Shown piece after piece: positions 1 through 33,257 of a DNA stretch of 37,170 bases (the stretch's first letter is position 1; every line of letters begins with the position of its first letter). Below the pieces are notes generated by a model. It worked only from the letters and a program-made list of their open reading frames with translations, did no database searches and was not told the DNA's origin. Both the position numbers and the translations under genes were made by a program. Source of the stretch: a virus (lineage: Duplodnaviria > Heunggongvirae > Uroviricota > Caudoviricetes); the IMG/VR virus record IMGVR_UViG_2585427743_000015. The stretch is one strand, 5' to 3'.

Positions 1-1002
1 TTACCCTCTATTGTCAAAAGGGTTCAATTCAACAGCAGCCTCTAAATGACCTGGAGCAAAATGCGCATAACGCATAGTCATTTTTATATCGCTATGCCCC
101 AGTATTTTTTGCAACACAAGAATATTTCCGCCCCGCATCATAAAATGACTGGCAAACGTGTGACGTAGCACATGAGTTAATTGCCCATCAGGAAGCTCGA
201 TCTTCGCTCTCTTAATTGCAGCGTCAAAAGCCTCATAACATGGTGAAAATAGCGCTCCTCGTTTTTTAGGAAGCATAGCCTGCAATTGAGGTGAAATCGG
301 TACAGTGCGGTTCTTCTTTCCTTTAGTTTTAACAAATGTGATTCGACCGGGCAGTACTTGAGATTGCTTTAATCCTTCTGCTTCACTCCACCGAGCACCA
401 GTCGCAAGCCCAATACGGACAACAACCCCCAAATCTTTATTCCGTGACTCATCACACGCAATCAGAAGGCGTTCAATCTCATCTACATACAGAAACGCCA
501 GTTCCTTTTCTTCCTCACGAAACTTGCGAATACCAGTCAGGGGGTTTTCACCAGACCACTCCCCAAGGCGCTTCAGTTCGGCAAAAACAGCATGTAGATA
601 TGACTGCTCGCGATTAACGGTTGCTTCACTAAGTTTTTTCTTCCCCTTGGGATTCCATTCTCCTGATAGCCTTCTTTCCCGATAAGTAGCAAACATATTT
701 TTGTCAAACTGCGAAGCAAATGGATCTCCCAGCCTGGAACAAATCGCCTCAAGTTTGACTTTGCGCTCTGCACCAGAGGACAAGGTTTTACCGTACATCT
801 CAAACCAACGAGCAATCAACTCAGAAAGACGAGGACCAGAACCATCTTGAAACTCGTCTCCAACTCTACTATTCATTAAACGGCGCTCATAAGAGAGCGC
901 CTCACTTTTTGTCGCAAACTGTTTACGAATGCGTTTTCCCGATGCCCCGTAGGGATAACATTCGCAAAGCCATTTACCTGATGGAATCTTACGAACCGAC
1001 AT
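1..1002 (-). CDS. int: Phage tyrosine integrase (P2/186 family)
   Basis: 333-aa ORF. N-terminus 'RKIPSGKWLCECYPYGASGKRIRKQF' resembles P2-family integrases; C-terminal catalytic region 'LRHTFASHF...GHSDIKMTMRYAH' (R, H-x-x-R, Y). Stop codon is at window positions 1-3. Confidence 0.9.
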   Translation of the reverse strand: MSVRKIPSGKWLCECYPYGASGKRIRKQFATKSEALSYERRLMNSRVGDEFQDGSGPRLSELIARWFEMYGKTLSSGAERKVKLEAICSRLGDPFASQFDKNMFATYRERRLSGEWNPKGKKKLSEATVNREQSYLHAVFAELKRLGEWSGENPLTGIRKFREEEKELAFLYVDEIERLLIACDESRNKDLGVVVRIGLATGARWSEAEGLKQSQVLPGRITFVKTKGKKNRTVPISPQLQAMLPKKRGALFSPCYEAFDAAIKRAKIELPDGQLTHVLRHTFASHFMMRGGNILVLQKILGHSDIKMTMRYAHFAPGHLEAAVELNPFDNRG

Positions 1003-5117: not shown

Positions 5118-5321
5118 ATGAACAAAAAGACCTGGTTTCGCGCATACATGTGGGCGCTGGTATGCGTCCTCGTCTCTCTCATTCTGTATGCAGGACTACT
5201 CCCCCGAATGATTTCATCAGACAGCTCCTTCCTGGTATTGCTGGGAATTTTCATTGCCATGCTGTACCCGGCAGGCGTTGTTCGCCTTTTCAGTAAGTAC
5301 ATCAAGGAAATCAAACAATGA
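5118..5321 (+). CDS. Small membrane protein (two predicted TM helices)
   Basis: 67-aa ORF with two hydrophobic segments; immediately upstream of the SPFH lipoprotein gene with overlapping stop/start. Confidence 0.5.
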   Translation: MNKKTWFRAYMWALVCVLVSLILYAGLLPRMISSDSSFLVLLGIFIAMLYPAGVVRLFSKYIKEIKQ

Positions 5322-6148
5322 AGAAATTCAGACTCTTTCAGATTCTCCCGCTTTTTGCCGCCATCCTGCTGGTTGGTTGCGATCGCGTTGAGCCAGGTAA
5401 TGTGGGCATCAAAGTCAACAAACTGGGCGACGACAAAGGCGTCGGTGAAGTGGTTGGCGTTGGCCGCTACTGGACAGGCTGGAATACAGAGGTTTACATC
5501 TTCCCGACCTTCAAACAAATGAAGAGTTACGATGAGCCGTTCAACTTCCAGATGAGTGACGGCACAACCATCGGCTATCACATCGGCGTGGCCTACAAAG
5601 TTGATCCATCCAAAGTTACCACGGTGTTTCAGACCTACCGCAAAGGCGTGGACGACATTACCGACACTGACCTGCGCCAGAAGATCGCCGATGCACTCAA
5701 CCGACTGGCCAGCAAAATGACCACCGATAAGTTTATCGACGGTGGTAAGTCTGAACTGCTGGATTCAGCACTTAAAGATATTCAGGAAGAGATGACCCCC
5801 ATCGGTATTCAGGTCATGAGCCTCTCTTATGTCGGTAAACCGGAATATCCGCCAACCGTTATCGACAGCATTAACGCCAAAGTCACGGCAAACCAGAAAA
5901 CCCTGCAACGCGAACAGGAAGTCAAGCAGCGCGAAGCAGAAGCCAACATGTTGCGCGCAGAAGCTGCCGGACAGGCCGATGCCATTCGCACAAAAGCCCA
6001 GGCTGAAGCCGACGCCATTCGTTTACGCGGCGAAGCTCTGCGCCAGAATCCCGGCGTTATGGAGCTGGAAGCAATCAACAAATGGAACGGCACGCTGCCG
6101 CAATACATGACCAGTAACACCGCTGTTCCGTTCGTTCCCGTGAAGTAA
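5318..6148 (+). CDS. SPFH/Band-7 (prohibitin-like) domain lipoprotein
   Basis: 276-aa ORF; lipoprotein signal with lipobox 'LLVGC'; central domain and Ala/Glu/Arg/Gln-rich coiled coil ('QREQEVKQREAEANMLRAEAAGQADAIRTKAQAEADAIRLRGEA') typical of SPFH proteins. Confidence 0.7.
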   Translation: MKKFRLFQILPLFAAILLVGCDRVEPGNVGIKVNKLGDDKGVGEVVGVGRYWTGWNTEVYIFPTFKQMKSYDEPFNFQMSDGTTIGYHIGVAYKVDPSKVTTVFQTYRKGVDDITDTDLRQKIADALNRLASKMTTDKFIDGGKSELLDSALKDIQEEMTPIGIQVMSLSYVGKPEYPPTVIDSINAKVTANQKTLQREQEVKQREAEANMLRAEAAGQADAIRTKAQAEADAIRLRGEALRQNPGVMELEAINKWNGTLPQYMTSNTAVPFVPVK

Positions 6149-22799: not shown

Positions 22800-23696
22800 A
22801 TGCCTGCCGTTGACCTTTCACAGTTACCGGACCCCGCCATCATCGCGGAGCCTGACTTTGAGGCAATTCTGGCTGACACAAAGGCCATGATGATTGCGTC
22901 CTATCCCGCCGAACAGCGTGAAGCCGTTTCCGCCGCGCTGGAGCTGGAATCGGAACCCCTTAACGTTATCGCTCAAACCATGTCGTTTCGTGAAATGCTG
23001 TTACGCCAGCGGGTCAATGAGGGTGCACGCGCCTGCATGCTAAGCCACAGCGCCGGGACAGACCTGGACAACCTCGCGGGCAATATGAACACAAAGCGCC
23101 TGGTTATCACTCCGGCAACGGATACCACCGACGCAGTGATGGAAAGTGACACCTCGCTGAGACTACGGGCGCAACGGGCATATGACGGTCTGAGTGTTGC
23201 TGGCCCGTCAGGTGCATACGAGTATTTTGCACGCAGCGCCAGCGGTCTGGTACGCGATGCGCGGGCCATCAGCCCGTCTCCGGCCAACGTGACGGTTTCC
23301 ATCCTGTCCACTGAGGGCGACGGCACAGCAACGGAGGCGTTGCTTAATACCGTTCGCGCCGTTCTGAATGCAGAGGATACCCGCCCGGTGGCCGACCGCC
23401 TGACCGTACAGAGCGCCAGCATCGTGACATGGCGGCTGAATGCAAAACTGTACTTTTACCCCGGTCCGGAATCCGAACCTATTCTGGCCGCGGCGGAATC
23501 GTCATTCAGGAAGTGGCTGGCTGAACAGGGGCTTATCGGTCAGGACGTGGCGTTGTCCGCCATTGCTGCCGCACTTCATGTACACGGCGTGCAACGCGTG
23601 GAGATAATCGAACCCACACAGAATATGGCCATCAGCGACATACAGGCGGCGCGCTGTGAGTCATTCACCATCAGCGAAGGTGGGCGTAATGAGTAA
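22800..23696 (+). CDS. J: Baseplate protein (P2 gpJ family)
   Basis: 298-aa ORF in conserved order. Confidence 0.85.
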   Translation: MPAVDLSQLPDPAIIAEPDFEAILADTKAMMIASYPAEQREAVSAALELESEPLNVIAQTMSFREMLLRQRVNEGARACMLSHSAGTDLDNLAGNMNTKRLVITPATDTTDAVMESDTSLRLRAQRAYDGLSVAGPSGAYEYFARSASGLVRDARAISPSPANVTVSILSTEGDGTATEALLNTVRAVLNAEDTRPVADRLTVQSASIVTWRLNAKLYFYPGPESEPILAAAESSFRKWLAEQGLIGQDVALSAIAAALHVHGVQRVEIIEPTQNMAISDIQAARCESFTISEGGRNE

Positions 23697-24219
23697 TTCA
23701 CTGTTACCGCCATCAGCCAGCAATTTCATGCGTTGTGCCGAAGCTGTCGGAACGCGCATTACAGACATCCCGGTAGACCTCAACACGCTGTGGTCGCCGG
23801 ACACCTGCCCGGTGCACCTGCTGCCTTATCTCGCCTGGGCATTTTCCGTTGACCGCTGGGATCGCAACTGGCCGGAAGAGACAAAACGACAGGTGATTCG
23901 TGATGCATGGCTGATACACCGACACAAGGGAACCATCAGCGCACTGCGCCGGGCCATTGAGCCGCTGGGATACCTCATTCGTGTGTCTGAGTGGTGGGAG
24001 TTCGGCGGAGAACCGGGAACATTTACCGTTGAAGTGGGCACGCTGGACAGTGGCGTGACGGAGGAAATGTATCTGGAAATGGAGCGGTTGATTGCTGATG
24101 CCCGCCCGGTCAGCCGCCACATGACAGGGCTGAATATCATTCAGGAGATTCCGGGGGATATTTTCGCGGCGGCAGCAACTTACGACGGTGAAGTCATTAC
24201 CATTTATCCGGACGATTAA
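23689..24219 (+). CDS. I: Baseplate protein (P2 gpI family)
   Basis: ATG at 23689 ('MSNSLLPPSASNF...') gives 176 aa, matching P2 I; ORF-track start 23656 would overlap J further. Confidence 0.8.
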   Translation: MSNSLLPPSASNFMRCAEAVGTRITDIPVDLNTLWSPDTCPVHLLPYLAWAFSVDRWDRNWPEETKRQVIRDAWLIHRHKGTISALRRAIEPLGYLIRVSEWWEFGGEPGTFTVEVGTLDSGVTEEMYLEMERLIADARPVSRHMTGLNIIQEIPGDIFAAAATYDGEVITIYPDD

Positions 24220-24221
24220 GC

Positions 24222-27077
24222 ATGAGTACCACAACACGAAAATTTAAAACCGTTATCACCGATACGGGTGCAAAAAAATTAGCTCAGGCAGCCGCGCCAG
24301 ATGGTAAGCCTGTCCGCCTGACTCATATGGCCGTGGGCGACGGTGGCGGCACGTTGCCCACACCAGACAGTAAGCAGACCCGTCTGGTGCATGAGGTGTG
24401 GCGACATACTGTTAATCGCGTCATCCTGGACGCAACACATCAGAACCGCATTATTGCGGAGCTGGTTATTCCTCCTGAAACGGGCGGATTCTGGATCCGG
24501 GAAATTGGTGTATTTGATGAGCACGGCGATTTGATCGCGGTGGGCAATACTGCGGAAAGTTACAAGCCAGCCGTTGCCGAAGGATCCGGACGTGTACAAA
24601 CATTTCGCACCATTCTGACCGTATCCAGCACTGCCACCGTGGCGCTTACCGTGGATAACACCATGGTTATGGCCACAGTGGATTACGTGAATGACAAACT
24701 GAAAGAACATGAACAGTCACGACGTCACCCGGACGCCTCGCTGACCGCAAAAGGCTTTGTTCAACTCAGTAGCGCCACCAACAGCACGTCTGAAACACTG
24801 GCCGCAACGCCGAAAGCGGTAAAGGCCGCGTATGACCTTGCTAACGGGAAATATACCGCACAGGACGCCACCATAGCGCGAAAAGGCCTTGTCCAGCTCA
24901 GTAGTGCCACCAACAGCACGTCTGAAACGCTCGCCGCAACGCCGAAAGCGGTAAAGGCAGCATATGACCTTGCTAACGGGAAATACACTGCACAGGACGC
25001 CACCACAACGCGAAAAGGCCTTGTTCAGCTCAGTAGCGCCACCAACAGTGATTCTGAAACGCTTGCGGCAACGCCAAAGGCGGTAAAGGCAGCATATGAC
25101 CTTGCTAACGGGAAATACACTGCACAGGACGCCACCACAGCGCGAAAAGGTCTTGTCCAGCTCAGTAGCGCCACCAACAGCACGTCTGAAGCATTGGCCG
25201 CAACACCGAAAGCGGTAAAGGCCGCGTATGACCTTGCTAACGGGAAATACACTGCACAGGACGCCACCACAGCGCGAAAAGGTCTTGTCCAGCTCAGTAG
25301 CGCCACCAACAGCACGTCTGAAGCATTGGCCGCAACACCGAAAGCGGTAAAGGCCGCGTATGACCTTGCTAACGGGAAATACACTGCACAGGACGCCACC
25401 ACAGCGCGAAAAGGTCTTGTCCAGCTCAGTAGCGCCACCAACAGCACGTCTGAAGCATTGGCCGCAACACCGAAAGCGGTAAAGGCCGCGTATGACCTTG
25501 CTAACGGGAAATACACTGCACAGGACGCCACCACAGCGCGAAAAGGTCTTGTCCAGCTCAGTAGCGTCACCAACAGCGATTCTGAAACGCTTGCGGCAAC
25601 GCCAAAGGCGGTAAAGGCCGCGTATAACCTTGCTAACGGGAAATACACTGCACAGGATGCCACTACAGCGCGAAAAGGTCTTGTCCAGCTCAGTAGCGTC
25701 ACCAACAGTGATTCTGAAACGCTGGCCGCAACATCAAAAGCGGTGAAGTCTGCCTATGACAATGCTGAAAAACGCCTTCAGAAAGATCAGAACGGTGCGG
25801 ATATTCCGGGAAAGGATACCTTCACGAAAAATATCGGTGCCTGTCGTGCTTATAGCGGCGCTTTGAGCACTGAAGCCGGAAACTGGACAACCGCTCAGTT
25901 TATTGAATGGCTGGATTCCCGTGGTGCATTTAATCATCCGTACTGGATGTGCAAAGGCTCATGGTCATATGCAAATAACAAAATCATTACGGATACCGGA
26001 TGTGGTGATATCCACCTGGCTGGTTGTGTCGTCGAGGTCATGGGAACTAAATCTGCAATCACTATCCGAGTAACCACGCCGACAACATCAAGTGGTGGCG
26101 GTACAACCAGCGCACAATTCACTTACATTAATCATGGGGGCGGCTACTTCCCCGGCTGGCGTCGTGACTGGAATCGTCAGGGCGACTCAATGACCGGAAC
26201 GATTAATCAGGATGGCGGAAGCCAGAATGCCTATATGTCTACGGCCTTATGTTCAGGCACCAGAGGCGGCAAAAAATATCTCAGAAAGTTTCGTGGTGGA
26301 GAAGGAGATACTATCTGGCATGAAACAGTACAGGGCGGGGTAATTCGCTGGGCGACAGGAAACTATGACGCTCAGGAAGAATTATCACTCAGCTCCGCTT
26401 ATGGTCTCCGTTCAAGAGGTGAGATTACATCACTCAGTGCTAATGGTCTGCGCATTGCTTATGGCAATTATGGATTCTTTATCAGGAATGATGGCGGCAG
26501 CACATATTTAATGCTGACGGCCTCTGGCGATAAATTTGGGACATGGAACGGCTTAAGACCGCTGACTATCAATAACGCCAATGGCGGAGTGTCAATGGGG
26601 CATGGCCTGAGTGTTACAGGTGATATTGTCTCAAGTACCAAAGTACGTGCCGGTAGCGGGAAAAAGTTCATGGTCAGCAGCAGCAATACATCCACGAAGG
26701 AAGCCGCATTCAATTTGTGGGGAAACGCAAGTCGTCCGGTGGTGGCTGAATTAGGTGATGATGCAGGCTGGCATTTTTACAGTCAGAGAAATACAGATAA
26801 CAGCATCACTTTTGCTGTTAACGGGCAGGTATCACCATCTAACTATGGCAACTTTGATTCACGCTATGTCCGGGATATTAGACTTGGTGGCGCGTCATCC
26901 TATAAACCAGCAAATAACGGGACAACATGGACGCATCAGGCTCCATCTGGTTGCGCATATACCGGGATTATCGTTCAGGATACAGGCTCAAACTCTGCCG
27001 ATAATATTGGTGGTGTTTATTACAGACCAATTCAAAAAAATATTAATGGTACATGGTATAACGTATCGAGTGTTTGA
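24222..27077 (+). CDS. H: Tail fibre protein (P2 gpH family) with expanded internal repeats
   Basis: 951 aa; N-terminal ~180 aa closely match P2 gpH ('HEVWRH...AELVIPPE.GGFW.RE'); then ~7.7 tandem 44-aa repeats; distinct C-terminal receptor-binding region. Confidence 0.9.
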   Translation: MSTTTRKFKTVITDTGAKKLAQAAAPDGKPVRLTHMAVGDGGGTLPTPDSKQTRLVHEVWRHTVNRVILDATHQNRIIAELVIPPETGGFWIREIGVFDEHGDLIAVGNTAESYKPAVAEGSGRVQTFRTILTVSSTATVALTVDNTMVMATVDYVNDKLKEHEQSRRHPDASLTAKGFVQLSSATNSTSETLAATPKAVKAAYDLANGKYTAQDATIARKGLVQLSSATNSTSETLAATPKAVKAAYDLANGKYTAQDATTTRKGLVQLSSATNSDSETLAATPKAVKAAYDLANGKYTAQDATTARKGLVQLSSATNSTSEALAATPKAVKAAYDLANGKYTAQDATTARKGLVQLSSATNSTSEALAATPKAVKAAYDLANGKYTAQDATTARKGLVQLSSATNSTSEALAATPKAVKAAYDLANGKYTAQDATTARKGLVQLSSVTNSDSETLAATPKAVKAAYNLANGKYTAQDATTARKGLVQLSSVTNSDSETLAATSKAVKSAYDNAEKRLQKDQNGADIPGKDTFTKNIGACRAYSGALSTEAGNWTTAQFIEWLDSRGAFNHPYWMCKGSWSYANNKIITDTGCGDIHLAGCVVEVMGTKSAITIRVTTPTTSSGGGTTSAQFTYINHGGGYFPGWRRDWNRQGDSMTGTINQDGGSQNAYMSTALCSGTRGGKKYLRKFRGGEGDTIWHETVQGGVIRWATGNYDAQEELSLSSAYGLRSRGEITSLSANGLRIAYGNYGFFIRNDGGSTYLMLTASGDKFGTWNGLRPLTINNANGGVSMGHGLSVTGDIVSSTKVRAGSGKKFMVSSSNTSTKEAAFNLWGNASRPVVAELGDDAGWHFYSQRNTDNSITFAVNGQVSPSNYGNFDSRYVRDIRLGGASSYKPANNGTTWTHQAPSGCAYTGIIVQDTGSNSADNIGGVYYRPIQKNINGTWYNVSSV
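24744..25770 (+). repeat. Tandem 132-bp (44-aa) coding repeats within tail fibre gene H
   Basis: Unit 'ARKGLVQLSSATNSTSE(T/A)LAATPKAVKAAYDLANGKYTAQDATT' repeated about eight times with few substitutions. Confidence 0.85.
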
Positions 27078-27613
27078 TTATGATGCATTTAAAAAATATA
27101 AAACCGGGCAATCCAAAAACAAAAGAACAGTACCTGTTAACTAAAAACTCCGGCGTTGTCTGGTTATTCGCTGAAGATGGTAAAAACTGGTATGAGGAAC
27201 AAAAGAACTTTCAGCCAGACACCATAAAGATTGCATATGATGAAAATAATGTCATATGCGACGTGCAAACGGATGTAACTGCAATTTGCCCGGAAGGAAA
27301 AAGTGTTGTCGAGTTGCCTAATATTACAGCAAACCGACGCGCTGATATTTCAGGTAACTGGATGTTTAAAGATGGCTCAGTCATTAAACGTGTGTATACC
27401 GAAGAAGAGCAACGCTTGCAGGCTGAAAACCAGAAACAAAGGTTATTACAGCAGGCCAGAGAAAAAACGCAGTTCTGGCAGACCCAGCTTGCATTAGGGA
27501 TTATCAGTGATTCAGATAAGCAACAACTGATGCGCTGGATGCGGTACGTGCAACAAGTTGAGACCACTGATACCACTGAATTACCCGTTACGTTCCCTGA
27601 TCAACCAGAATAA
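27074..27613 (+). CDS. G: Tail fibre assembly chaperone (P2 gpG family)
   Basis: 179-aa ORF overlapping H stop. Confidence 0.8.
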   Translation: MIMMHLKNIKPGNPKTKEQYLLTKNSGVVWLFAEDGKNWYEEQKNFQPDTIKIAYDENNVICDVQTDVTAICPEGKSVVELPNITANRRADISGNWMFKDGSVIKRVYTEEEQRLQAENQKQRLLQQAREKTQFWQTQLALGIISDSDKQQLMRWMRYVQQVETTDTTELPVTFPDQPE

Positions 27614-27616
27614 ACG

Positions 27617-27650
27617 AAAGGCCCGAATATCGGGCCTTATCGTTATTTCT
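27617..27650. terminator. Bidirectional rho-independent terminator between convergent G and U
   Basis: Hairpin GGCCCG (27620-27625) / CGGGCC (27631-27636) flanked by T-rich sequence on both strands. Confidence 0.5.
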
Positions 27651-27681
27651 GTTTATCTAACTATTTGTGATTTGCGTTAAA

Positions 27682-28176
27682 TCAGAACAGTCCCTTAACA
27701 GAACTGACCGCACTGTTAAGGGATGACGCCACCTTATCTTTGAAGCCGGACAGCATATCGCTGAACGATGAGGATTGCAGGCGCTCCCGCAAATCCTCAT
27801 CACAGCGTTCAAGGGTCAGTGAAAATTCTATCTTTTTCGCCTTACCGTAGCGATCAAACTCGGAACGGGTCGTATTCGTTTCAGTCAGCACATACATGCC
27901 GTAAATCTGCCCGACACCATCAATCAGAGGCCAGGGGCGTCCTGTATATGCCTGCGTGGTCAGCAACGAAAGCGACACTTCGCCACCTGTAATTTCAGGA
28001 TAAAGCACGCCGGAAAGCACAATGCGATCATCACCTGCACCTATATACTGCCAGCTTGCTGAACGGTTAACGCGTTCATTTTTTACATGCCGCCAGCTTT
28101 TGTTTTGCTGTAACTGCTGATGCGGCAGTGTGCGCAGCTCAAAAACAAACATGCCGTAGATCATCATCATGGCCAT
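27682..28176 (-). CDS. U: Tail protein (P2 gpU family)
   Basis: 164-aa ORF immediately downstream of T on the minus strand. Confidence 0.8.
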   Translation of the reverse strand: MAMMMIYGMFVFELRTLPHQQLQQNKSWRHVKNERVNRSASWQYIGAGDDRIVLSGVLYPEITGGEVSLSLLTTQAYTGRPWPLIDGVGQIYGMYVLTETNTTRSEFDRYGKAKKIEFSLTLERCDEDLRERLQSSSFSDMLSGFKDKVASSLNSAVSSVKGLF

Positions 28177-28182
28177 GACTCC

Positions 28183-31026
28183 TCAATCTTTATCGTAAAA
28201 ACTGCCACGTCCGGCACGGGCGCGCCGTTCCATCTCTGCCCTGACCATTTCACCGACCAGTTTCGCCAGTTCGCGGGGATTCTGCGTAACAACGTTATGC
28301 AGATGAACATGAATTTCACCGCCAAACCCGGAGGCAACAGGCTCCCGGTTACGGAAAGTTGCAGGAACTGATGCCACTGGAGAGCGTATGGCCTCCGCCA
28401 CCGGGCGGGAGCTGGCCGCAACAACAGGGACCAGCGCCGGAGGCAGCGGAGCCGGGACCACGGGTGTGATATTAATTGCGGGGGCAGGCTTACTGACCTG
28501 CGCAATCTTCCGCTCCTGCCACTCCCCACGAACAGCAAGTGCGCGGGGCAGGTTCTTAAAGACAATATCGCCGGGGCCAATGCGTTTTTTCGTCTCATCA
28601 ACCAGCTTACCTGTGTTATCAGCAATTTTGCTGAGTCTGCGTAGCGTCCCGGTATTGCTGTCTGTGAGCGGTTTGTTGTCTTTGGGTTTATCGCCTCCGG
28701 TGCCATTGCCATTTTCCGCAGACTTCGGCGGATTGATTTTCGCAATGTCTCCCTGAAACAGAGCGACCTTGTCCTGAAGAATGGCCGCACGCTGTGCGTC
28801 TTCGATTTTCTTTCTCGCCCTTTCCGCTTCATCCGGAAGCACACCGAGTTTTTCAAGTATCCACGCCAGCGTATCCAGCAACATTTTTGCAGGCGTCAGA
28901 ACAAGTTGTAACGCACCGCCAAGAACGTTACCGAATATCTCGCCAGCACTGGTACATTTATCCAGCGTTTCCTTGCTGGACTCCATCGGTGACAGCAGTG
29001 ATTTAAACCAGTTAAACACCTGGCTGATCCCGCTTCCGATTGCGTCAAAAACAGGACCAAACCGTTCAAAGGTTTCGCGCAACGGGGTCAGCCTTTCCAT
29101 AATCCCGCTGAACACCCCGGCAAAAAATGCCCTGATGGGATCCCAGTATTTCCAGATAAGAACGGCAGCTCCGGCAAGCGCAGCCACGATAAGACCAACC
29201 GGACTGAACAACGCCCCGATAGCGCCTCCCAGTAAAGAAACGGAACCCGTCACCATTCCCCATAGTGCTGGCAGGACCCTGACAGCATTCATTGATCCGG
29301 TCAGGAGAGAAAAACCAAGACGCAGTTTTGCCAGCGGGCCAGCAAGCACACCAATAGCCAGCGACAACGAGCCAACCGTTGCAGTCATTGCCAGCAACGC
29401 ACCGCCTGCTATCAGTAGCTGGCGCGTCAGTGCCGGATGGGCCTGCGCCAGCGCCGTCACCCTTGATACCACCCGCGTGAGCCACTGCGTGACAGAACGC
29501 AGCGGACCGTCAATCAGATCTGCAATGCGGATGCGCAACCCTTCCCATGCACTGCCGAGTGATTTCAGATCGCCGTCAAGGTTGTTGGCCATAACCTTTG
29601 CTGTGCGTTCAGCCTCACCGCGCGCGCCTTCAAGTTCTTTTCTCAGTTTGGGTAAGGAACCGTCACCCGCTGCATCAACGAGCGCCATAAACGATGTGAA
29701 AGCCTCTTCTCCGGCAATGTCCTTAAAGAACGATACCCGGTCAACTTCCCCGTATTTGCGGGTGACTTTATAAAGGTCGGCCAGCACATCCTCCATCGGG
29801 CGCATTTTGCCCCCGGCATCCGAGACGGACACGCCCAGCTCTTTCAGCGCCTCTGCTGCTGCCTTTGGCGGTGATGCCAGACGAGCCAGGCTGGCACGCA
29901 TTGCCGTCCCGGCATCACTCCCTCTGATACCCATATTCGCCAGCACGCCCGCCATCGCTGCGGCCTGCTCCAGCGATATTCCCAGCTTACCCGCCACCGG
30001 ACCTGCATATTTCATGGTTTCGCCCAGTGCGCGAAGGTCAGTGTTGGTACGGGTAAACGCTGCGGTGAGCGTGTCGCCAACCCGGTCCATCTGGTCAGCA
30101 GAAAGGCCGAACTGCGTCAGGATATTTGAGCCAATATCCGCCGTCTCGCCGAGATCCATGCCGCCAGCCGTTGCCATGCTCAGCACGCCCGGAAGCGCAG
30201 CCTGAATGGCCTGCGGTGTGAAGCCCGCCATTGCAAGAAATGCCTGCCCACTGGCGGCATCGCCTGCGGTGAACTGCGTTTCAGAGCCAAGTTTTAACGC
30301 CTGCTCACGCAGCGCCTTAAACTGCGGGCTGTTCTGGTCGATTCGCGTCAGAGCCTGAACGCGGGACATCTCTTTCCCGAACCCAATCGCGGGCTGCAAA
30401 AAACGCCCGGCAGCATAGCCGCCCGCCGCTGCCGCACCTGTTGCCAGTGCACCACCTGTTTTCAGTTTTCCCGCGGTTTCCTGCGCGCGCGAATACCGCT
30501 CACGCGCACGTGTTACACGCGCAAGCGCCTGCCGTTCGCGTTCAAGCTGGTTGTTGTACTGTTCGGTGCGTCTGATGGCCTGCTGGATGGTGTTATCGCT
30601 GCCTGTCAGGGAAATGCCGTGGCGTTTCAGCTCTCCGCCAAGCTCCCGCATTTTCTGAATTTCCCGTGTACGCGATTCATTCAGGCGTTCAAGCCGGGTG
30701 CTTAACTGCTGCATCAGCTTTTGTTGTTTTTCGCTGAGCACTGTACCCGTGCGTTGTAACTGATTAAGGGCGTTAAGCTGGCGTCGTGCTTTCACGATGC
30801 CAGCATCCGCTTTACTGACAGCGTCACGGGCGCGCTCAAATGAACGCGCCTGACGCTCGAGATTTTTGATCGCCCCCTGCGTTCGCTGGATGGAGTCACC
30901 AAACTGCCCCATCAGGCGGCGGGCGTTTTCGGCAGGCCGAGTCAGCCTGTCAACGGCGCTGAAAGCGACCCGGATATCAAGAGTCTTCATTGTCTGCATT
31001 CCCGCTGCGAAGTGCCGCCCGCTCAC
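28183..31026 (-). CDS. T: Tail tape measure protein (P2 gpT family)
   Basis: 947 aa, Ala/Gly-rich with long helical stretches and a hydrophobic central segment; GTG at 31026 or internal ATG at 30999. Confidence 0.9.
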   Translation of the reverse strand: MSGRHFAAGMQTMKTLDIRVAFSAVDRLTRPAENARRLMGQFGDSIQRTQGAIKNLERQARSFERARDAVSKADAGIVKARRQLNALNQLQRTGTVLSEKQQKLMQQLSTRLERLNESRTREIQKMRELGGELKRHGISLTGSDNTIQQAIRRTEQYNNQLERERQALARVTRARERYSRAQETAGKLKTGGALATGAAAAGGYAAGRFLQPAIGFGKEMSRVQALTRIDQNSPQFKALREQALKLGSETQFTAGDAASGQAFLAMAGFTPQAIQAALPGVLSMATAGGMDLGETADIGSNILTQFGLSADQMDRVGDTLTAAFTRTNTDLRALGETMKYAGPVAGKLGISLEQAAAMAGVLANMGIRGSDAGTAMRASLARLASPPKAAAEALKELGVSVSDAGGKMRPMEDVLADLYKVTRKYGEVDRVSFFKDIAGEEAFTSFMALVDAAGDGSLPKLRKELEGARGEAERTAKVMANNLDGDLKSLGSAWEGLRIRIADLIDGPLRSVTQWLTRVVSRVTALAQAHPALTRQLLIAGGALLAMTATVGSLSLAIGVLAGPLAKLRLGFSLLTGSMNAVRVLPALWGMVTGSVSLLGGAIGALFSPVGLIVAALAGAAVLIWKYWDPIRAFFAGVFSGIMERLTPLRETFERFGPVFDAIGSGISQVFNWFKSLLSPMESSKETLDKCTSAGEIFGNVLGGALQLVLTPAKMLLDTLAWILEKLGVLPDEAERARKKIEDAQRAAILQDKVALFQGDIAKINPPKSAENGNGTGGDKPKDNKPLTDSNTGTLRRLSKIADNTGKLVDETKKRIGPGDIVFKNLPRALAVRGEWQERKIAQVSKPAPAINITPVVPAPLPPALVPVVAASSRPVAEAIRSPVASVPATFRNREPVASGFGGEIHVHLHNVVTQNPRELAKLVGEMVRAEMERRARAGRGSFYDKD

Positions 31027-31506
31027 GCCAGCTAACCACTTCGCCGGGCGTCATCATGAAGATTTCGGCGGGCGACCAGTTAAAAATAACGGCAATATCT
31101 GCCACAAAGTCTTCTATGTGCTCAAAGCACACAACCGTGATCAGGCTTCCGTCGCCTGTTCGTTCTTCCCGCCAGAGTCCGCACCGCTCAAAAAATTTAC
31201 GGCAACCACACATAACTGAATAAAGTCACGGGATGCCATTTTTTTGATCGTCACTTCATCCAGTCGCGGTGATGTCACGCGTGACAGCAGCGTAAACATG
31301 GATTCCGCTTTCAGATTCAGCACATCAGACAGCGACAAATCTCGCAGAGATCCAGCCTGCTCAATAGCCCCGGTGATCTCCACATACGTGATTTTTTCGC
31401 CGCCTCGCTCAATTGGTTGGGTAAGTTTTACGCCACGCTCACTGGTTTCTTTCACAGTGTCAGCAACTACCGTGTTTTCGGTATCGATGTTTTTCGTCTC
31501 TTTCAT
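30977..31506 (-). CDS. E+E' fusion chaperone made by programmed -1 ribosomal frameshift
   Basis: Slippery heptamer T_TTT_TTG on the minus strand (plus coords 31189-31195); the -1 frame continues as 'ERCGLWREERTGDG...' to a stop at 30977, overlapping the T start. Confidence 0.6.
31141..31506 (-). CDS. E: Tail assembly chaperone (P2 gpE family)
   Basis: 121-aa ORF between tail tube and tape measure; contains the slippery site near its 3' end. Confidence 0.8.
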   Translation of the reverse strand: MKETKNIDTENTVVADTVKETSERGVKLTQPIERGGEKITYVEITGAIEQAGSLRDLSLSDVLNLKAESMFTLLSRVTSPRLDEVTIKKMASRDFIQLCVVAVNFLSGADSGGKNEQATEA

Positions 31507-31560
31507 CAGGAAACTCCTTTCAGTCAGAGGCGACGCACTGCGCCGCCTGCATATTACTTA

Positions 31561-32073
31561 TCAGCCAAGCCCAAGCGCGGAACGGATACGGTCAGGCACA
31601 ATGTCCTTGCCGTCCTTCCGGTAGATGAAGTTCAGCAGGTCAATCTCCCACAACGGGCGATCGTTAACACTCAGCTTGTAGTAGGTGTTTTTAATGGCGT
31701 AAGTGTGTGATGTGGCTTCGCCCTGTTTGGCTTCCCCCATATCAATTTCCGTCACACGTCCGCGCATTTCGACTTCATACAGGTCGCTTTCTGCATCGGT
31801 GTAGTATTCACCCGCAAAACGCAGCAGCGTGCCGTCAATCGTGCCGCCATACTTAAGGAACAGCTCACGAACTGCGCCCCCCATGACAAAGCTCGCATCA
31901 AGCGCGGAGTCGTCCAGACCGAGATCAATACTTACCGCACCCATCATGCCGCCACCCCGGTAGCTGTCGGTTTTGCGCGTCAGCTTAGGCAGAGTGACGG
32001 ACGTCACCTTACCCACTTCGTTTTCACCATCCACAAACAGCGTAAAAAAGCGAAGATGTTTTGGCACAGCCAT
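31561..32073 (-). CDS. FII: Tail tube protein (P2 gpFII family)
   Basis: 170-aa ORF downstream of sheath, size as P2 FII. Confidence 0.85.
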   Translation of the reverse strand: MAVPKHLRFFTLFVDGENEVGKVTSVTLPKLTRKTDSYRGGGMMGAVSIDLGLDDSALDASFVMGGAVRELFLKYGGTIDGTLLRFAGEYYTDAESDLYEVEMRGRVTEIDMGEAKQGEATSHTYAIKNTYYKLSVNDRPLWEIDLLNFIYRKDGKDIVPDRIRSALGLG

Positions 32074-33257
32074 CAGGCACCTCCCAGCACCGCAAATGCA
32101 GGTTCAAAGTATTCATCAGTAAACGTCTGGTAAAGCTCCATGTCTTCCAGTGGCGGAACAGGCGTATATTTGTAGCGAATACGCACACGCCCCTGACGTA
32201 AATCCGTGGTGCTGTTATCCACCACGTCATACCAGCACTCCGCGCCAATCAGTTTCCCGGCAGTAACCAGTGAATCCAGTTTTGCCCTGATGGCACTGAT
32301 AACATCCTTCACGTTCGCAGGCGTCAGTGGACTGTCGATGGTTTCAAACTGCGCTTCTGCAATTGAATCAGCCAGCACCTGTGCGGTTCGGGTATACACC
32401 TCAAAGATGTAGGCGTTCGTTTCCGGTGTGCGGTTGCCCCAGAAGCGGAACCCGTTGCGACGAATAATGGTCGTGATTTCTTTGTTGTTGAGGCTGTTGG
32501 CATCACTGTCTTCGGCCTGCAACGACCAGAACACATGCCTGGACATTCCCAGCACATTTTTAACAGGAACGTTGGACAGCGATTTGTGCCAGCCCTGCTC
32601 ATGGTCAATGTACGCACGAAGGCCGCACGCATAGGCAGGCGCGGGGAACGTTTCGTTTTTGCCACTTTTCGGGTTGTAGGCGATGAAGTCCGGCCATAAG
32701 AGCATCACCTCACGTTCGTTGAATTTCTGGCGGTAGGTAATCGCCTCAGCCATCGTGTTACAGCCGTGACATGAGGCATACACAAACGCGCGCAGTTTAC
32801 CCGCAATCACGCACAGGGATTTTGTTACCGCCTCCGTGTCCAGCTCCGGCGCGGCCAGAATACGCGGACGGTATCCGATGCTTTCATCCTGCTCTGCAAC
32901 AAGCAGCGCATACATCCCCGTATAGCTGCCGTCAGATTCAGAACCACCGATAACCAGTTGATCCTGCGTTTTTCCGTCTTCTTCTTTGTGTTCAGCCACG
33001 CGAACGACGATCACCTTTGTGCTCACCTGGTCTGCGATGGCCTTAAGCGCACGATAAAGCGTCCCCGTTGTCCCGCATTTTCCCAGCACGTCATTGACGC
33101 GGGTCAGCAGTGTGGGCTTGTTCAGCGGGAACAGCTTCGCGTCCGCATCATCCGCCGTTGCCACGATACCGATAACGCTGGAATCAACATCGTTAATCGC
33201 TGTTACCAGGTCGGTATTTTCCGTAACACGGGCACCATGAAAACGAGTTTCACTCAT
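32073..33257 (-). CDS. FI: Tail sheath protein (P2 gpFI family)
   Basis: 394-aa ORF, size and position as P2 FI. Confidence 0.9.
   Translation of the reverse strand: MSETRFHGARVTENTDLVTAINDVDSSVIGIVATADDADAKLFPLNKPTLLTRVNDVLGKCGTTGTLYRALKAIADQVSTKVIVVRVAEHKEEDGKTQDQLVIGGSESDGSYTGMYALLVAEQDESIGYRPRILAAPELDTEAVTKSLCVIAGKLRAFVYASCHGCNTMAEAITYRQKFNEREVMLLWPDFIAYNPKSGKNETFPAPAYACGLRAYIDHEQGWHKSLSNVPVKNVLGMSRHVFWSLQAEDSDANSLNNKEITTIIRRNGFRFWGNRTPETNAYIFEVYTRTAQVLADSIAEAQFETIDSPLTPANVKDVISAIRAKLDSLVTAGKLIGAECWYDVVDNSTTDLRQGRVRIRYKYTPVPPLEDMELYQTFTDEYFEPAFAVLGGA

Follow-up and report, generated by a model that had tools for sequence, protein, structure and literature searches.

An eight-module PF03406 array in the tail fibre of a P88-like E. 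coli prophage and its probable origin by stepwise duplication of one module

We consider the tail-fibre gene of a prophage contained in a DNA stretch of 37,170 nucleotides (IMG/VR record IMGVR_UViG_2585427743_000015), which is called the window throughout. The gene lies directly downstream of two baseplate genes and is followed by the gene of a tail-fibre assembly chaperone. The features of the locus are given below with their positions in the window, their strand and, in parentheses, the source of the assignment.

22800-23696 (+), baseplate gene J, and 23689-24219 (+), baseplate gene I, directly upstream of the fibre gene (PF04865, PF09684, called genes)
24222-27077 (+), tail-fibre gene, gpH equivalent, an intact ORF of 951 aa (ORF list; PF12571, eight PF03406 and PF21446)
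24237-24680 (+), tail-collar fibre domain at the N-terminus, aa 6-153, presumably the end that attaches to the baseplate (PF12571, E = 7.7e-54)
24750-25805 (+), PF03406 array of eight in-frame units of 132 bp / 44 aa in the order A B C D D D E F (TRF, unit table, Pfam)
25146-25541 (+), units 4-6, unit D three times over with identical DNA, the sole difference from the 6-unit allele (unit comparison)
25095-25566 (no strand), perfectly periodic tract of 472 bp with period 132 (w[i] = w[i+132] over 25095-25434)
25674-25805 (+), terminal unit F, whose diverged second half (…SAYDNAEKRLQKDQNGADI) runs into the distal half (unit table)
25806-27074 (+), distal half of the fibre, mosaic, including the presumed receptor-binding tip (PDB sequence search, PF21446)
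26376-26570 (+), Gp34-type trimerisation domain, aa 719-783, inside the distal half
27080-27613 (+), tail-fibre assembly chaperone Tfa, 177 aa (PF02413, E = 2.5e-33)
24761-25006 (-), antisense ORF of 81 aa, the same artefact as the next (ORF list)
25025-25705 (-), antisense ORF of 226 aa, periodic, a by-product of the repeat (ORF list)

The order J-I-fibre-tfa and the PF12571 domain fix the gene as the gpH equivalent. The preliminary description, which took the gene for a P2-H-type tail fibre, is borne out by the domains and by this gene order, and is refined in that the prophage is P88-like. The encoded protein has exact matches under the name "phage tail fiber repeat family protein" (KDT02505.1, KEM30264.1 and WP_072002945.1; JNNA01000084.1), and Tfa is a called gene in the source contig (L002, 5859-6392). 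P2 gpH (NC_001895) and other Peduovirus H proteins show the same layout, with a PF12571 N-terminus directly ahead of PF03406 units and the gene flanked by I and by the Tfa gene, G. Unit 1 hardly differs from that of P2 gpH (KGFTQLSSATNSTSETLAATPKAVKAAYDLANGKYTAQDATTAR); the distal half is different. A second contrast to P2 is that the tail genes FI-U in the window are found on the strand opposite to the fibre, whereas on the P2 map these genes lie on the same strand as the fibre gene.

The comparison with P88 (Xuanwuvirus P88, NC_026014) is closer in this respect, with a common gene order that includes the minus-strand FI-U block. The structural region (12500-37170, 24.7 kb) is 96-97% identical to Chuche, 503458 and PhiR44_2 over 78-82% of its length, and the same query is 97.7% identical to P88 over 52%. 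By its sequence, the prophage is P88-like (Xuanwuvirus, Peduoviridae), from E. coli, rather than P2 itself. The N-terminal domain of the P88 fibre, gp39, is nearly identical to that of the window fibre, but gp39 has three units and another distal half. P88 also carries an invertible tfa'-fibre'-invertase cassette (25416-27564) downstream of tfa, which the window does not have and which is not genus-defining. In the window, gpU (27682-28176, -) lies 68 bp beyond the end of tfa at 27613. No invertible alternative-fibre cassette with a DNA invertase is present in the window's ORF list, and the gap between tfa and gpU contains no ORF; a diversity-generating or invertible fibre system was rejected for these two reasons.

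About eight near-identical 132-bp repeats had been noticed behind the N-terminal domain, and they are confirmed by Tandem Repeats Finder, by the unit table and by eight PF03406 stretches. Tandem Repeats Finder gives 24749-25760 as one array (period 132, 7.7 copies, 92% matches, 0% indels, score 1597). PF03406 is found on the fibre protein with E = 9.9e-152 and 492.8 bits against a cut-off of 22, each stretch covering the profile from 1 to 41/42, and an HMM built from the window units also counts eight in the window fibre. The array is read in the frame of the fibre ORF (24222-27077, +), and its units run from 24750 (aa 177) to 25805 (aa 528). The boundaries originally assigned to it, 24744-25770, are right at the start to within a few bases, and the end falls about 35 nt short of the end of the last unit.

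Units 1-7 are full 44-aa modules that differ pairwise at 0-19 of 132 nt, with no difference at all among units 4, 5 and 6. The first half of unit 8 (unit F) is repeat-like and the second half is diverged, which leaves 44-51 nt differences between this unit and the others; it can be aligned to residues 117-159 of Mu S. The window units contain the core motif of distant PF03406 members (G-x-V-x-L-S ... A-A-T-x-x-A-V), and the columns G2, L6, S14, A19, T20, A23 and V24 are invariant in an alignment with units taken from Mu S, from a protein of 1629 aa and from a protein of a Pseudomonadota MAG. The older units are separated by 6-12 synonymous versus 2-5 non-synonymous codon differences, and 18 of the 27 variable columns fall on codon position 3. 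Since the differences are mostly synonymous, the module is under constraint at the protein level, and the array is old with a fresh duplication on top. The D-specific 25-mer is GTCTGAAGCATTGGCCGCAACACCG. The pattern specific for D-D occurs twice in the window and has an expectation of 0.00 in shuffles, so a chance repeat is of no concern.

The array had also been said to generate long spurious antisense ORFs, and this is the case for the two listed above: both are periodic, neither scores above the Pfam threshold, and neither is annotated where RefSeq records the 6-unit allele. The longer one spans 226 codons, which would be the reason to take it for a real overlapping gene. This length, however, is reached because one stop-free antisense frame per unit repeats, as the 44-residue period of the sequence reflects, and it would shift with each change of copy number. 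The best Pfam score of the ORF is 20.3 bits, below the cut-off of 25, and the RefSeq annotation of the allelic locus has no CDS there. A real gene at this position is extremely improbable.

The unit counts in relatives were obtained with the HMM from the window units, which replaced a regex count that missed diverged units. Canonical P2 H (NC_001895, 669 aa) has one full and one partial unit, another P2 record has four units, and P88 has three; the eight of the window exceed the counts of both P2 records, as the preliminary description had it for P2 H. The 120 closest protein clusters have 4-6 units, and the commonest alleles are tightly grouped at 4-5. Proteins that share the identical N-terminal domain of the window are found with 5, 6 and 8 units. 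When the array alone is used as a BLAST query, the longest span is 751 bp (6-unit alleles) among the 40 E. coli matches listed and 532 bp (4 units) among the 25 phage matches listed. Taking the unit number from the coverage in this search was rejected: off-register pieces are joined, so the count of matches with at least 80% coverage is uninformative, and the spans of single rows are usable.

The complete genome of ETEC1749 contains a 6-unit allele, A B C D E F, whose units are DNA-identical to window units 1, 2, 3, 4, 7 and 8. The flanks are 100% and 99.9% identical to those of the window. Over its first 528 nt the gene is 100% identical to those of ETEC1749, Z142-6 and CH468, and the distal half of the ETEC1749 fibre (WP_050487170.1, 863 aa) is 99.9% identical. 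The difference lies in the two additional D copies, which the ETEC1749 fibre does not have; its allele is found in about a dozen complete genomes. The window allele is exactly the ETEC1749 allele with two perfect additional copies of D. The 7-unit intermediate, A B C D D E F, is present in an IMG/VR contig (L012) with a prophage 23 SNPs apart over 9.1 kb, and a second contig (L011), with 2 mismatches in 12 kb relative to the window, has A B C D D D E F. Among complete E. coli genomes, the alleles AF, ABF, ACEF, ABCDF, ABCDEF and C'DCDEF are found with flank identities of 0.966-1.0.

This natural series of 2, 3, 4, 5, 6, 7 and 8 units with near-identical flanks supports the earlier remark that such arrays are prone to recombination. 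The array is thus a coding minisatellite whose units stay in register and which is prone to recombination or slippage. The variation in copy number is real but ordinary, and the PF03406 repeat is already well known. We found no literature report on copy-number variation of PF03406 or gpH repeats or on the sequencing of the source, and the P88 paper (PMC5285337) is silent on repeats.

We consider it likely that the PF03406 modules belong to the proximal fibre shaft of this P88-like prophage and that the 8-unit allele is very recent, having arisen from ABCDEF via stepwise duplication of D. The route would lead from A B C D E F to A B C D D E F and on to A B C D D D E F, with no later substitutions. 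Because the units are exactly 132 bp (44 codons) long and 86-100% identical in DNA, whole modules can be gained or lost without a break of the frame. Such gains and losses, with the frame intact, could be the work of in-register unequal homologous recombination, by RecA or a phage recombinase, or of replication slippage.

There is a concern whether the triple D is genuine, or whether it is the resolution of a loop in a short-read assembly graph and the true number of D copies is another one (giving 6, 7 or over 8 units altogether). The source of the window is a draft (GCA_000700165.1, with the window on an 83-kb contig), and within the 472-bp perfect tract the D number is the assembler's estimate unless reads or pairs span the tract. 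In a true ABCDEF allele, C(82-132)+D(1-25) is the same as D(82-132)+E(1-25); this makes a common node of 76 nt, so a D-to-D cycle is possible in a de Bruijn graph. Database fragments of the fibre gene often start within a unit, which indicates that contigs break in the array. Related assemblies conflict, 7 versus 8 units, and the 7-unit locus ends 225 bp past the array, probably at the end of its contig. The D-D junction occurs in none of 5,426 complete E. coli genomes, and exact-pattern scans find none in species-representative genomes or JGI metagenomes; the best 396-bp match in complete genomes has 96.5% identity and is the D-C-D of MINF_1A. The caveat about short-read copy number in the preliminary description was well placed, given the draft source, the periodic tract and the junction scan of the complete genomes.

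Several observations argue for the assembled number nevertheless. The identical 951-aa protein is deposited under two GenBank accessions, on two contigs, and the 8-unit array is found again in the IMG/VR contig with 2 mismatches in 12 kb, which is hence a separate record. Copy-number variation of exactly this PF03406 fibre array is real in complete genomes. Perfect tandem repeats are more often collapsed than expanded by assemblers, and by this tendency eight is more likely to be a minimum than an overcount. A miscount is possible, though we are inclined to doubt it; the exact count of eight rests on draft assemblies, and long-read confirmation is needed.

The stepwise duplication of D can be placed in a scheme of the whole fibre. 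The PF12571 domain would anchor the fibre, presumably a homotrimer, to the baseplate wedge of J and I; next would come the eight modules of 44 residues as proximal shaft, and the distal Mu S/S'-like half, aided by Tfa in its folding, would contact the host receptor. In Mu, the fibre N-terminus docks on the baseplate wedge (PMC11915804); the N-terminal attachment domain of Mu S differs from that of the window fibre. The likeness to Mu S/S' (gp49; PDB accession codes: 5YVQ, 8JU3, 9KI1) lies in a homologous distal half and a Tfa-type chaperone. In a PDB sequence search, aa 513-666 resemble the Mu S-S' chimera (8JU3, E = 9e-90) and aa 727-950 resemble Mu S (5YVQ, E = 1.3e-60). Together with the adjacent Tfa gene, this homology suggests that the distal half is a Mu S-type, Tfa-dependent receptor-binding domain, for which LPS binding and folding would be as in Mu, where the role of Tfa has been described (PMC9608196). 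Mu switches the distal half of its fibre by inversion of the G segment (PMC11915804), and the host-range determinants of P88 map to C-terminal hypervariable regions of the fibre, not to the repeats (PMC5285337).

It is plausible that the array lengthens the shaft, given its place after the domain for baseplate attachment and before the receptor-binding half. Each module would then contribute its own length, and how long the shaft is probably depends on the array, with a possible effect on adsorption. A profile search of the PDB found no multi-unit PF03406 structure, only the single unit of Mu S (residues 117-159). An AlphaFold2 single-sequence monomer model of aa 1-573 was all-helix with a mean pLDDT of 40.8 and a pTM of 0.27, and was discarded as unusable for its pLDDT.

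The next question is whether the length is tuned by selection. The array would then be kept mutable, in a contingency-type manner, with lengths that fit the depth of the O-antigen or capsule, and the 8-unit allele would be adaptive and not a product of drift. The occurrence of 2-8 units on near-identical backgrounds is consistent with this, as are the unit protein sequence that is kept while the DNA drifts and the 11-12-unit arrays of other E. coli fibres, one of them plasmid-borne. Adenovirus may offer an analogy: its serotypes differ in how many shaft repeats their fibres contain, and this number influences receptor use. However, the case for tuning is built on the comparison of between-strain alleles, and the same variation is expected if tandem repeats of 132 bp simply undergo unequal recombination without selection. 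The commonest alleles, at 4-5 units, look like a preferred length and not like diversifying selection, and no paper was found that reports a length-tuning effect for PF03406 arrays. All changes in unit number among the between-strain alleles compared are in-frame, so on/off switching is not involved.

We judge selected tuning to be unlikely, and an equally long shot is the broader idea of the array as a fast-evolving length dial, whose 44-residue steps (2-8 units here, up to 12 elsewhere) would give heritable variants of fibre length. If the dial were true, its lengths would suit P2/P88-like prophages, otherwise identical, to hosts that differ in O-antigen or capsule depth, and the succession D, DD, DDD would be a snapshot of ongoing expansion.

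With or without selection, the alleles AF, ABF, ACEF, ABCDF, ABCDEF, ABCDDEF and ABCDDDEF neatly illustrate, in a natural series, how a receptor-binding fibre can change its length in frame and module by module. The overall significance is modest and will be no surprise to phage specialists. For genome work, it matters that short-read assemblies of E. coli frequently break in the fibre gene and are prone to copy-number errors there, and fibre lengths from drafts need long reads. If fibre length affects adsorption through the O-antigen or capsule, the unit could be built into engineered fibres or tailocins as a naturally occurring spacer that keeps the frame.

The word "expanded" is a relative term for this array, as 11-12 units are found in other E. 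coli fibres and eight is no record. These fibres, MCZ5247813.1 (846 aa, 12 units) and the plasmid-borne MGE2023831.1 (778 aa, 11 units), also have near-identical tandem PF03406 units, but their N-terminal domains and distal parts are different from those of the window fibre. In both, two forms of the unit alternate with a 22-residue spacer, which gives a higher-order period of 100 or 156 residues.

We begin by considering the gene that carries the repeats, an intact open reading frame of 951 codons on the plus strand (24222-27077). The repeat family and the order of the domains are read directly from Pfam matches to its product and its neighbours:

aa 6-153: tail-collar fibre N-terminal domain (PF12571)
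eight stretches: PF03406 (Phage_fiber_2, "phage tail fibre repeat"), 492.8 bits against a cut-off of 22
aa 719-783: Gp34 trimerisation domain (PF21446)
upstream of the fibre gene: baseplate J (PF04865)
upstream of the fibre gene: tail protein I (PF09684)
downstream of the fibre gene: Tfa chaperone (PF02413)

After the Tfa gene, gpU and the tape-measure gene follow on the opposite strand. Given these domains, with J and I upstream and Tfa downstream, the gene is the gpH-equivalent tail fibre. GenBank already lists the 951-aa protein under the name "phage tail fiber repeat family protein", and one record names the strain E. coli 6-319-05_S1_C3.

Within 23000-28000, Tandem Repeats Finder reports one array only (24749-25760, period 132, 7.7 copies, 92% matches, no indels, score 1597), and it lies inside this reading frame. 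In that frame the 44-residue units run from aa 177 (nt 24750) to aa 528 (nt 25805): seven are full units (KGLVQLSSATNSTSETLAATPKAVKAAYDLANGKYTAQDATTAR and close variants), and the eighth has a diverged second half (…SAYDNAEKRLQKDQNGADI). Because of this array and the in-frame layout of its units, the preliminary description, which placed about eight 132-bp repeats at 24744-25770, is correct in both observation and coordinates. It also foresaw spurious long antisense reading frames, and two are found:

25025-25705, minus strand: antisense ORF, 226 aa
24761-25006, minus strand: antisense ORF, 81 aa

Both simply repeat, with the period of the array, a single antisense frame that lacks stop codons. 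Neither reaches the threshold for any family match or is annotated in RefSeq at the allelic locus; the repeat gives rise to them as by-products.

Pairwise, units 1-7 differ at 0 to 19 of their 132 nt; no difference at all separates units 4, 5 and 6 at the DNA level. Among the older units, codon differences are synonymous in 6-12 cases versus non-synonymous in 2-5, with 18 of the 27 variable columns at codon position 3. The picture given by these sequences is of an old array whose module sequence is under purifying selection, whose whole units are gained and lost in register, and which has a very fresh triplication in the strain of the window.

To place the copy number among relatives, units are counted with an HMM made from the window's own units:

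canonical P2 H (NC_001895, 669 aa): 2 units (1 full, 1 partial)
second P2 record (NC_070905, 736 aa): 4 units
P88 fibre: 3 units
MCZ5247813.1 (P0121), E. coli fibre, 846 aa: 12 units
MGE2023831.1 (P0122), E. coli, plasmid-borne, 778 aa: 11 units

The window, with 8 units, thus has more than either P2 record, as the preliminary description had said of P2 H. In a search of 5.8 billion proteins, the 120 best-scoring clusters have 4 units in 50 cases, 5 in 58, 6 in 12 and more than 6 in none. From the counts in P2, P88 and these clusters, the window allele is the longest seen in its own lineage. The record of the repeat family belongs elsewhere: querying 1.84 billion cluster representatives with the array finds E. 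coli fibres with more units (the last two proteins listed), as well as several much longer proteins with 8-12 diverged units each. In MCZ5247813.1 and MGE2023831.1 two unit forms alternate, with higher-order repeats of 100 or 156 residues; whole multi-unit blocks have therefore been duplicated there.

We turn to the origin of the eight-unit allele. In the complete genome of ETEC1749 (NZ_CP122712), the 863-aa fibre has six units, here lettered A to F, which are DNA-identical to window units 1, 2, 3, 4, 7 and 8; over its first 528 nt the gene shows 100% identity to that of the window, and over the distal 1.27 kb 99.9%. The window is then A B C D D D E F, the six-unit allele with two perfect extra copies of D and no other change. 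An exact-pattern scan for the D-D junction matches two IMG/VR contigs. One, L011, is again A B C D D D E F (2 mismatches to the window in 12,053 nt); the other, L012 (IMGVR_UViG_2585427737_000004, 8270-9193), has a single extra D (A B C D D E F), an intermediate state, and its prophage shows 23 mismatches to the window in 9,136 nt. Its seven-unit locus ends 225 bp past the array, within the fibre gene, which is probably another contig break. Comparison with H genes of related prophages extends this to an in-frame series of 2 to 8 units between near-identical flanks (identities 0.966-1.0 in complete E. coli genomes), so that gain and loss of whole units is shown:

C3: A F, 2 units
CH468: A B F, 3 units
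HCP5S3_I2: A C E F, 4 units
Z142-6: A B C D F, 5 units
ETEC1749 and about a dozen others: A B C D E F, 6 units
MINF_1A: C' D C D E F, 6 units (two-unit duplication)

Database proteins with an N-terminal domain identical to the window's have 5, 6 or 8 units.

There is a concern, whether the true unit count is eight. The window comes from a draft assembly (GCA_000700165.1, contig JNNA01000084.1), and its tract 25095-25566 (472 bp) is perfectly 132-bp-periodic, so that the D units cannot be counted with reads or linked pairs shorter than 472 bp. Even in a true A B C D E F allele, a 76-nt node common to the C-D and D-E junctions gives a D-to-D cycle in a short-k assembly graph. Database fragments of the fibre gene often begin within a unit; contigs therefore commonly break in the array. 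Among 5,426 complete E. coli genomes the D-D junction is absent; the 396-bp match that comes nearest to D-D-D, at 96.5%, is the D-C-D of MINF_1A. Scans of genome representatives and metagenomes give none either. On the other side, the identical 951-aa protein has two GenBank accessions from two contigs, the eight-unit array recurs in the non-identical L011, and assemblers usually collapse tandem repeats rather than expand them. We judge a different count somewhat unlikely, and it would leave the nature of the array unchanged.

The preliminary interpretation is supported and, with this reservation on the count, the feature is an ordinary one. The PF03406 family and its occurrence in the fibres of P2, P88, Mu, lambda and P1 type are already established, as is the fact that tail-fibre genes evolve as modular mosaics. 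The present analysis adds the exact derivation, in which D is duplicated and the array goes from 6 units through 7 to 8, and also the allelic series; no description of copy-number polymorphism of this array was found in the literature.

How might such a fibre work? The N-terminus of the Mu fibre docks onto the baseplate wedge (PMC11915804), P88 host range is set by C-terminal hypervariable regions (PMC5285337), and Tfa chaperones help the distal part to fold and trimerise (PMC9608196). Between these two ends, the PF03406 modules probably make up the trimer's proximal shaft, to which each unit would add a fixed length increment. Unit number would change when 132-bp units undergo unequal homologous recombination or when replication slips between them. 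A PDB search for PF03406 units returns one unit only (Mu S, residues 117-159), and the AlphaFold model from single-sequence input has a pLDDT of 40.8. We hold it to be quite improbable that the number of units serves as a selected, fast-switching dial of fibre length, matched to the depth of the host surface.

The distal half is, as judged by alignment, homologous to the phage Mu fibre: aa 513-666 align with the Mu S-S' chimera 8JU3 (E = 9e-90), while for aa 727-950 the match is Mu S 5YVQ (E = 1.3e-60). This half (window 25758-27071, aa 513-950) looks mosaic, with a gp34-type (T4) trimerisation domain between two Mu-like parts, the first closest to the S' (G-minus) part of 8JU3 and the second to Mu S (G-plus).

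The whole prophage is P88-like (Xuanwuvirus, Peduoviridae). Its structural region (12500-37170) is 96-97% identical over 78-82% to Escherichia phages Chuche, 503458 and PhiR44_2, and 97.7% over 52% to P88, which has the same gene order including the minus-strand FI-FII-E-T-U block. In both, the tail sheath, tube, E, tape-measure and gpU genes (27682-33257, minus strand in the window) are opposite in strand to the V-W-J-I-H-tfa operon; P2 differs in the strand of its sheath-to-gpU genes. Between tfa and gpU, P88 has an invertible host-range cassette (25416-27564 of its record, L004), made up of an alternative tfa'-fibre' pair together with a DNA invertase, whereas the window has only a 68-bp gap (27613-27682) without the cassette and therefore a single fixed fibre specificity. 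At its ends the window contains:

1-1002, minus strand: integrase, far left
34567-34827: Ogr-like zinc-finger ORF, right end
35017-35157: hok/gef-like 46-aa ORF, right end
36168-36470, minus strand: tRNA-Leu(taa), tRNA-Cys, tRNA-Gly
36622-37170, minus strand: pgsA

The prophage seems to adjoin the glyW-cysT-leuZ cluster.

An early-region gene (5318-6148, plus strand) encodes an SPFH/Band-7 family protein (PF01145, E = 6.5e-31) with no PADLOC match; the P88 record at the matching place is annotated 'lipoprotein / serine protease'. A 268-aa DUF3800 protein (11597-12403, minus strand) is encoded between the portal gene and the ParM/partition genes, a place at which P88 shows small hypothetical ORFs only. 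In PADLOC its match is to the candidate anti-phage defence family PDC-M04A (E = 2.6e-35), and it is probably prophage-borne defence cargo. The ParM/StbA actin-like plasmid-segregation gene itself (10090-11049, plus strand), like gp17 of P88, lies inside an integrated prophage, which is odd for an integrating phage.
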